NCBI GenBank assembly: GCA_951406725.2
Contig: OX597816.1
Location: 1,736,001 to 1,800,000, forward strand
Direction of reading: 5' to 3'
Length of the DNA: 64,000 nt
From: Octopus vulgaris
Taxonomy: Eukaryota
Shown: piece after piece, positions 57,001 through 60,000 of the stretch
Numbering within the stretch: position 1 is the first letter of the stretch
Layout of the letters: every line of letters starts with the position of its first letter
Made by a program: the position numbers and the translations under genes
The notes under the pieces: generated by a model
The model's database searches: none
The model's input: only the letters and a program-made list of their open reading frames with translations
What the model was told of the DNA's origin: nothing

Positions 57001-60000
57001 TCAATGATTTTTAATTTTGGATTTTTTTTTTTCTTAAATTCTATTTTGTCAGAGTTACTTAAAGGAAAATAAACTCCTCCATGATGTTCATTTCTGGATT
57101 GGCGAAGAGAGTACTCAGGTTAGTATATTTAAAAGTAAAAGACAAGATTAATTTTGAGAATTATTATTAAACATTTCAGGTGACAAACTAATGGTTTGGT
57201 AGTGAGAATTCTTAGAACATTGGACTCACAGTGACACGATATGACACAGTGACTCGATGTGACACAGTGACTCGATGTGACACAGTGACTCGATGTGACA
57301 CAGTGACTCGATATGACACAGTGACTCAATATGACACAGTGACACAGTGACTCGATGTGACGCAGTGACTCGATGTGACACAGTGACTCGATATGATACA
57401 GTGACTCAATATGACTCAGTGACGCAGTGACTCGATGTGACGCAGTGACTCGATATGACACAGTGACTCGATGTGACACAGTGACTCGATATGACACAGT
57501 GACTCTATGACACAGTGACGCAGTGACTCGATGTGACGCAGTGACTCGATATGACACTGACTCGATATGACACAGTGACTCGATGTGACACAGTGACTCG
57601 ATATGACACAGTGACTCGATATGACACAGTGACTCGATATGACACAGTGACTCGATATGACACAGTGACTCGATGTGACACAGTGACTCAATATGACACA
57701 GTGACTCGATGTGACGCAGTGACTCAATATGACACAGTGACTCGATGTGACGCAGTGACTCGATGTGACGCAGTGACTCGATGTGACGCAGTGACTCGAT
57801 GTGACGCAGTGACTCGATGTGACGCAGTGACTCGATGTGACGCAGTGACTCGATGTGACGCAGTGACTCGATGTGACGCAGTGACTCGGTGACGCAGTGA
57901 CTCGGTGACGCAGTGACTCGGTGACGCAGTGACTTGATGTGATGCAGTGACTCGATGTGACGCAGTGACTCGATGTGACGCAGCTTGCCCCTGGTAAATG
58001 GAATCTTGTCTACATTGATAAGTGTTCAAGAATTTGACAAATCCATCTAATCTACATCTCTCAAACACACACTCACAGACCATATTTGGCTATGGTACAA
58101 GTTTCCCCATATTACCTTATATGGTAAATGGAAGTCTATCCCAGCTGGTGTCTAAAAAATTGGGATAAACACTGAGGAGAAAGTTTTCTTTTAAGTTCTG
58201 TAAAATCTGTTTAAAATTTTAAAAAGATCAGAGTTTGATTTTATTTTTCTGCTGAAGTATTTTCTTATTGCAATGGGGAAAAGAAATTGCAGTTTAGCCT
58301 TAATCCAGTTAAAAGAAAAAAATCAATGTTTAAAGAATTTGTGGGAAAAAATATTAGTAAAAATAAATGTTACTCATCACCACCACCACCATCATCATCA
58401 TCATTTAACATTCATTGTCCATGCTGGCATGAATTGGAAGGTTTGACCAGGGCTGGCAAGGCTGGAAGGCTGCACCAGACTCCTGTCTGATTTGGTATGG
58501 TTTCTATGGCTGGATGCCCTTCCTAATGCCAACCACTCCAAGAGTGTCATGGGTGTTTTTACATGTTTCCAGCATGGGTACTAATTGCGTGACCCCAGTA
58601 TCTGCCACAACTACGGTTTCACTTGGCTTCAGGGGTCTTCCTTCTCAAGCGCAGCATATTGCCAAAGGTCTTGGTCATTTGTCGTTTCTTCTGTAAGGCC
58701 CAACACTCAAAAGGTGCTTCTTATGTACCACTGGCACAGGTGCTCTTCAAAAAGATTTTAGTTAATGTTTTATAAGTTTATCTGACAGTCTTTATTGGAC
58801 CATCTCCTCTTATACATGCGACATATGAAATTTTAAGCTAACTTTATATGCTTAAATTTTCTTTGTTCCATGTGTGCCCCATGAATTATCATCTGTTTAG
58901 CAAACATCAACATGCATCAACAAATAATGTGGTTGATATAAAACAAAATTCAGTTCTCTTGTTTTGATTCCTTGATCCAGCATAGCTTTGACTGATGAGA
59001 CACTCAATGAGGGTGAAACACTGCAGTGTCTTAAAGTCTCCTTGCAGTGATGAATCGTGTGTGCTATGAACACATTCCATCTGATGAGACGGGGTTTCCT
59101 CTGACAACAAGCAAACAACTGCTGTCAGCATTATTCGTAGTTGAATCTGCTTCAAAATATTTTGGGCCTGAATCCAAAAATTACTTCAAATTCAAATCTA
59201 AACATTGTTGTGGTAAAGTCCTAAGTCGGTTCTAGTCAGAGGCAGAAGATCAAAGACGTTCTAGCCATGACCATCCTCTCTAATTTTTTTATTCCAGTAT
59301 AGTGTATCTCAAAGTACATCTAATTTTCTTCTTAAAAATCAAATGGAAATTGTGGTTAAGACACCCGTGCCCGTGACATGTAAAAAGCACCAACCGATCA
59401 TGGCCGTTTGCCAGCCTCCTCTGGCACCTGTGCCAGTGGCACATAAAAAGCACCCACCACACTCACGGAGTGGTTGGCATTAGGAAGGGCATCCAGCTGT
59501 AAAAACACTGCCAGATCAGACTGGAACCTGGTGCAGCCTCCTGGCTTCTCAGACCCCAGTCGAACCATCCAACCCATGCTAGCATGGAGAACAGATGTCA
59601 AACGATGATGATGATGAAGGTTGAGTGTAGTTGGAAATTTGACTGCTATTTCTTGCAAGTTAAGTGATCACATAGAGGAACCTATAAAATCTTAATGTGT
59701 TTTTGTGAAAGGATTTTTAGCTGGTGTTTTTATTCATTTCAGTTGTTTATAGTCGAAATGAAACATTTCAGTGATTGGATTATATTTCTCTTTCAGATTT
59801 AACTTCTGAAAGGAAGGTATTAAGCGATTCCAAGATAGTCTTTAAAAAGTAACAAAACCCAGTCAGAAATACTTTGTGTGTGTCTAGAAGATTTCAGGAC
59901 CCAGTGAACTTCTTCTCTTTCTAAAATCCGTTATTGGGTTCCAGAGGAAATTCAAAACTGCTCTTACTAATCTCGGCAACATGTTTAATCTTTTATGTAC

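Follow-up and report, generated by a model that had tools for sequence, protein, structure and literature searches.

The locus raises the question of whether a hammerhead ribozyme motif lying inside an intron of an octopus gelsolin-family gene cuts the RNA of its host, and how such a motif came to be there. In the stretch of 64,000 nucleotides analysed here (the window), the motif's host gene belongs to the gelsolin/villin family and lies on the + strand; for it we located six exons with AG/GT borders in one stop-free frame of 177 codons (47764-62461), two of the six matching villin, fragmin and gelsolin chains of solved structures. The motif lies 1.9 kb past one of these exons and 1.4 kb ahead of the next, on the same strand, and is thus intronic and sense to the gelsolin pre-mRNA, as the preliminary description had placed it. 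The two exons that flank it are:

57053-57118, + strand: host exon upstream of the intron, its 3' end being the loose end found before 60420 in contigs of X1, X2 and X3
60424-60551, + strand: host exon downstream of the intron, matched by 44 PDB sequences, the best being villin at E 1e-12

The motif follows the fourth coding exon that we located and at least one more exon lies upstream; the ordinal first given to its intron, 'intron 5', is plausible. In contigs of X1, X2 and X3, which are presumed RNA runs, the end of the upstream exon stands directly before the downstream exon, and therefore at least some of the RNA has lost the motif-bearing intron by splicing; the next intron, to 62353, is spliced in all four of four presumed RNA runs. 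These runs were used as assembled contigs, which cannot show cleavage, and no ranking of exon over intron was drawn from their depths. Near the cut site the contigs cover 58706-59019 (X1) and 58858-59047 and 59023-59392 (X2), none spanning it by 31 letters on both sides, and their ends carry no inference because unitigs break in repeats. The same intron also holds a minisatellite of ~20-nt units (57230-57985), which starts ~110 nt past the upstream exon, and decayed LINE-type reverse transcriptase elements, recognised by weak RVT_1 and PHD-like finger matches, occupy the minus strand at 27482-28543 and 53300-56200, in or before the gelsolin gene.

The hammerhead motif at 58985-59037 is real. 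Its parts, in order along the strand, are:

58985-58991, + strand: 5' strand of stem I, pairing with 59031-59037 (sequence and descriptor)
58992-58998, + strand: catalytic core C3-A9, CUGAUGA, intact in the sequence
58999-59014, + strand: stem-loop II, in which G58999 is G10.1 in the register of the repeat family
59015-59018, + strand: core G12-A15.1, GAAA, intact in the sequence
59018-59029, + strand: stem III, 4 bp and a 4-nt UGCA loop, a perfect 12-nt palindrome
59028-59030, + strand: GUC triplet in the sequence, with the predicted scissile bond at 59030/59031 (numbering partly after PMC4209133)
59031-59037, + strand: 3' strand of stem I, in which 59032 is U (C in the family) and forms a G-U wobble

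Both the sequence and a structural descriptor place the core letters CUGAUGA, GAAA and GUC where the preliminary description had read them, and the 12-nt palindrome that it proposed as stem III, able to fold as a 4-bp hairpin, was likewise confirmed. Stem I, given there as 6 bp, is present but measures 7 bp, two of them G-U. The core elements C3-A9, G12-A15.1, U16.1 and H17 stand in type I order with helices I and III able to form (7 bp and 4 bp), and what the motif lacks, in either register of helix II, is the closing G10.1-C11.1 pair (the family register has G-U there, followed by A-G; the offset one has A-U). The motif-model search that had been suggested succeeded in part: the descriptor matched once on both strands of the window, at this site, but Rfam returned no hammerhead there, either at the gathering score or at E<=10. 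The label 'canonical' could accordingly not be confirmed, both for want of an Rfam match and because the stem II register of the family is broken in this copy.

Might the match to the hammerhead consensus be due to chance? The absent Rfam match would suit that reading, as would the lowest-energy predicted fold of the motif region, which is not a hammerhead. On the other hand, an even looser descriptor matched none of 300 dinucleotide shuffles of the window, and the core and three helices are carried by a whole repeat family, one member of which (L064) passes the Rfam Hammerhead_1 cut-off under which the gelsolin-intron copy falls. A chance match has in our view practically no probability left, and the family evidence already refutes it. 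A second CTGATGAG at 59082 was considered as a second ribozyme and rejected, as no GAAA box follows it and it aligns to ordinary unit flank. Elsewhere in the window (43467-43524, minus strand), antisense to the gelsolin gene, we noted a second hammerhead-like core consisting of CUGAUGA, an extra G, a 6-bp helix II and then GAAAC, in which clear stems I and III were not seen and which has no match to the family profile.

The motif forms the middle of a longer repeat copy:

58842-59171, + strand: solo unit-length copy, 330 nt with approximate ends, of a dispersed non-coding repeat (non-LTR retrozyme or Penelope pLTR-like)

With nhmmer and a profile of 73 other copies, this stretch scores 220 bits (E 1e-66), and the profile search found no second copy in the window or in the next 40 kb. 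A BLAST search with a 101-nt stretch gave 39 other places in the genome at 77-92% identity among the 40 of 64 candidates that were scored, and one exact pattern occurs at 107 genome places, compared with 0 for its reversed control. When the 5' flank alone was the query, 39 further places appeared, and 24 of the 29 fetched contain part of the motif, with an intact core in five. Since none of these 24 flank-found copies matches the exact pattern, the family likely numbers at least ~900 copies and may reach a few thousand, which is a rough, one-sided bound; the fetched loci hold 181 distinct copies. At 330 nt the unit lies within the 150-450 nt used to define a non-coding unit with a type I hammerhead, and the tandem genomic copies that mark retrozymes are found as 18 pairs with periods of 296-350 nt, whose units abut with no ORF between them. 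The gelsolin-intron copy is itself solo, as are 48 of 60 loci of 10 kb, the others being tandem (6) or inverted (6). Family-like contigs are present in the presumed RNA runs, where ends or circles are not visible in contigs. No consensus structure emerged when 30 copies were run through RNAalifold, and support for the stems was judged by counts of pair types rather than by covariation. No paper describing the family was found for octopus with hammerhead, ribozyme or retrozyme as terms, in a search that left most subscription papers outside. It is probably a new but ordinary, aged retrozyme family of a known class. A different hammerhead family, above the Rfam cut-off and with an unusually long domain II of ~80 nt, was seen at three loci (L062, L063 and L066).

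The way in which the copies end suggests the kind of enzyme that inserted them. Measured with the tandem-derived profile, 3' ends gather in two clusters ~38 nt apart, at profile positions 175-199 (62 of 179) and 215-239 (39 of 179), both at AT-rich sequence, and 5' ends are spread. All 19 inverted pairs are head-to-head, and six of the nine with both arms ending in clusters combine one short and one long end. An inverted, 5'-truncated copy and a 30-40-bp tail have been described for Penelope-like elements (10.1101/2021.04.23.441226), and across the octopus family we found the corresponding set of pLTR traits: a fixed 3' end, a 30-40-bp tail, 5' truncation and an inverted upstream copy. The remaining trait, a terminal repeat joined to an RT/GIY-YIG ORF, was not found in 60 long loci or in 66 short ones plus the window. 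Remnants of a Penelope ORF were present in 3 of the 60 10-kb loci and once among the first 66 short loci and the window, and to none of them was the repeat joined as a terminal repeat; this search used one Penelope protein as query, with which a distant family could be missed. Moreover, tblastn with a Penelope ORF gave nothing in the window, ORFs of at least 70 aa in the first 30 loci included no Penelope protein by eye, and no target-site duplication of at least 6 nt was found. The mobilising enzyme is therefore one that we infer, since none of the loci examined links the repeat to an RT/GIY-YIG ORF. At the same time, the genome does have a Penelope family, which we take to be Neptune-like from our reading of its motifs; its RT/GIY-YIG frame runs to 781 codons and its terminal repeats to 456 bp. 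One young element of this kind (L089, 1430-6672) has terminal repeats of 456 bp that are 99% identical and a 359-codon frame upstream of the 781-codon one, a length shared by many genomic matches; its 3' terminal repeat holds, close to its end at ~6555-6610, a candidate core variant with a possible U3-A8 change (UUGAUAA, G, a 4-bp helix, GAAAC).

Taken together, the non-coding unit, the tandem and head-to-head pairs and the fixed 3' ends bear out the retrozyme and Penelope-like link that had been drawn for the motif, and the family is likely one of non-LTR retrozymes whose insertions bear a Penelope-type footprint. The same ends, tail and head-to-head pairs would also be expected of an orphan pLTR, left by an extinct or unsampled autonomous Penelope family with strong 5' truncation, which never spread separately as a retrozyme. 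Most Penelope hammerheads are single motifs away from ORFs, according to the accessible text of PMC4209133, and a decayed Neptune-like RT piece does lie 760 nt downstream of one copy (L055/L087). However, the abutting tandem pairs leave no room for an intervening ORF, the ORF remnants that we found are not joined to the repeat, and when the repeat was compared with the terminal region of 20 GIY-YIG loci the only DNA similarity was in shared SINE-like repeats. We regard the orphan pLTR as unlikely, though it deserves to be kept in mind. For the retrozyme with a Penelope footprint, we hypothesise that active ancestors were transcribed as multimers and cut themselves to unit length, a reaction in which the palindromic stem III probably let them act as dimers, that the RT/GIY-YIG protein of a Penelope-like element would have written the resulting RNAs back into AT-rich DNA, and that the gelsolin-intron copy may have landed in the sense orientation by chance and then decayed.

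How far this decay has gone can be read by comparison with other copies. In 23 unbiased copies the median divergence from the majority is 21% over the motif and 23% over the 3' flank, so the motif was not protected after insertion. Stem II of the family follows directly after A9, as G-C/A-U/C-G in 46 of 167 copies, which keep the G10.1-C11.1 closing pair exactly, and as G-U/A-U/C-G in 45 of 167, which is the expected CpG change of the former; the C11.1-G12 CpG shows this CpG-type change across the family. The gelsolin-intron copy has G-U/A-G/C-G, a combination found in 4 of 167: position 59014, the partner of G58999, is U instead of the family's C, and 59000/59013 is an A-G mismatch instead of A-U. 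It follows from this alignment that the 'extra G' after which the preliminary description drew a stem II of 5 of 6 bp is G10.1 itself. Such an offset register does exist, but it is private to this copy among 117 with an intact core, of which 72 form the first 3 bp of the family register. It is built by three copy-specific letters together (59004, 59013 and 59014) and starts with A-U rather than G10.1-C11.1. The changes that make this register also permit a third, predicted hairpin, in which 59001-59005 would form 5 bp with 59011-59015 and trap G12. As for stem III, it is palindromic in 8 of the 25 copies in which it is 12 nt long, and 19 of the 25 four-letter loops fit a CpG-type change from one palindromic loop that is still present in one copy, which fits palindromy as an ancestral trait kept here by two symmetrical CpG-type changes, not as copy-specific retention.

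Against decay counts the fact that core letters, stem I and stem III are all intact in the gelsolin-intron copy. Compared with the unbiased majority, 7 of 53 motif positions (13%) and 39 of 120 3' flank positions (33%) have changed (Fisher p 0.009), and the motif divergence is the lowest of 24 sequences. This excess can be explained by ascertainment, because the copy was chosen for its intact look, which fixes ~30 positions; selection would look the same. All seven changes are in stem II, the loops, N7 and one wobble, and they amount to about one third of the free positions, the rate of the flank. Looking for the locus in other octopuses, a check proposed earlier, did recover the insertion in three DNA runs with three organism labels, but these are too close for conservation to be judged: among the matches listed there are 4-6 differences per ~650 nt, too few for the contigs to show selection. 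Among the differences listed for the long matching contigs of these runs, none within 58985-59037 goes beyond a loop II change.

Folding predictions point in a similar direction, with less force. In five contexts of 53 to 330 nt, 58999-59001 are predicted to pair with 59028-59030 at a probability of 0.82-1.0, a rival helix that would cover the cut site; this is weak, uncalibrated evidence. The predicted penalty for adopting the hammerhead fold is 8-12 kcal/mol in the offset register and 12-15 kcal/mol in that of the family; it is 9.2 for L061, an Rfam-grade hammerhead of another family in the genome, vs 11.6 for the gelsolin-intron copy, and ranges from 4.0 to 26.3 over the 21 foldable of 74 family copies. 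In a cofold of two copies the best dimer reaches -34.3 kcal/mol and the double-hammerhead form -27.7 kcal/mol, about that of two free monomers, and a trans dimer is thus not favoured in the folding model.

We therefore could not sustain the earlier claim that enough of this copy is preserved for it to cut the pre-mRNA and influence splicing or yield: the first two pairs of its stem II differ from the family, the helix over the cut site dominates the predicted fold, neither the window nor the 40 kb after it contains a partner for a cis dimer, the exons flanking the intron are joined in RNA contigs, and published work found splicing to go on in introns that a hammerhead cuts. The last point comes from PMC2995048, whose accessible text reports efficient splicing in vivo of a hammerhead-cut intron, with only a faster HDV ribozyme blocking it. 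Cleavage of monomers was undetectable and that of dimers low for metazoan Penelope hammerheads (PMC4209133, as far as its accessible text goes), 6-22% of axolotl retrozyme monomers were cut in an hour (PMC7229834), and one of nine Xenopus dimers was cut (10.64898/2026.07.22.740005). In our judgement the locus probably holds an aged solo copy of a 330-nt hammerhead repeat that likely cuts the host pre-mRNA weakly or not at all; the repeat itself is likely a retrozyme that does not move autonomously and was inserted by an enzyme of Penelope type. Since splicing is co-transcriptional, it would usually cope with any residual cut, which would fall ~1.9 kb beyond the 5' splice site.

The copy might instead retain a useful rate of cleavage by means of the stem II register private to it (extra G, A-U, C-G, mismatch, 3 bp) and so lower or time the output of gelsolin mRNA, much as the intronic CPEB3 ribozyme is reported to tune mRNA output in mammals (PMC10919898). 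The intact core, stem I and stem III, the better preservation of motif than flank, the joint making of the offset stem by three letters and the near-constancy of the motif in the DNA runs all speak for this. However, the seven changes fall at the flank rate among positions left free, the pair at 10.1-11.1 is A-U and not the G-C that is highly conserved in Penelope hammerheads (PMC4209133), the G12-trapping hairpin is predicted to beat the offset stem II (-4.8 vs -1.5 kcal/mol), and DNA contigs differing by so few letters cannot speak for selection; we hold continued useful cleavage to be improbable. Still less probable, to our mind, is that, after insertion, stem II was rebuilt one position along by the three private substitutions, giving a Penelope-style motif that has an extra nucleotide and would still be cutting nascent gelsolin RNA, even if Penelope hammerheads are known to carry, naturally, an additional nucleotide ahead of a long helix II (PMC4209133) and one after A9 is tolerated in nature, as the accessible text of PMC1636495 has it.

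For the aged retrozyme copy, the sense placement in a gelsolin-family intron is most likely due to chance, and an intact-looking intronic hammerhead is to be expected by chance in a genome with many hundreds of copies. The family adds one old member to the known class of hammerhead repeats, and non-coding hammerhead repeats are again seen to carry the insertion footprint of Penelope elements, which bears on what enzyme is responsible for moving retrozymes. Should the copy cleave after all and tune the output of gelsolin, invertebrates would gain one of few cases in which an intronic ribozyme has been domesticated; if its stem II had been rebuilt, a transposon ribozyme would have been caught in the course of domestication, becoming a dial on an actin-regulating gene that is highly expressed.

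Among known systems, 235 hammerhead_1 loci are listed for the giant squid in the accessible text of PMC6962438. The octopus family is closest to the non-LTR retrozymes of metazoans, with which it shares a type I hammerhead in a non-coding unit of ~330 nt, GC below 45% and without ORF (PMC7229834; 10.64898/2026.07.22.740005), where the units measure 350-390 bp in mussel and 330/350 bp in axolotl (PMC7229834). It also shares tandem dimers and trimers beside solo units, and Penelope elements coexisting in the genome. It differs in being old (~20% from the majority) and mostly solo (48 of 60 loci), with no long arrays among those sampled; the likeness is one of genomic repeats, and in the gelsolin-intron copy stem II is degraded. 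With the hammerheads of Penelope pLTRs it has in common the type I form, the palindromic stem III and head-to-head inverted copies (PMC4209133; 10.1101/2021.04.23.441226), as well as fixed 3' ends, a ~38 nt tail on one arm and ragged 5' ends. Compared with the minimal Penelope motif, as far as it is described in the accessible text of these sources, it differs in that G10.1 follows A9 directly, helix II is 3-4 bp long and helix III 4 bp. Unlike Penelope pLTRs, the family showed no linked RT/GIY-YIG ORF in the loci examined. Amniote intronic hammerheads are single conserved loci, lying sense in their host introns. The HDV-like CPEB3 ribozyme is likewise a self-cleaving motif in sense orientation in a host intron (PMC10919898), a placement that the octopus motif, whose own self-cleavage is putative, shares; the CPEB3 ribozyme is a single conserved locus, whereas the octopus motif is one of many decaying copies.
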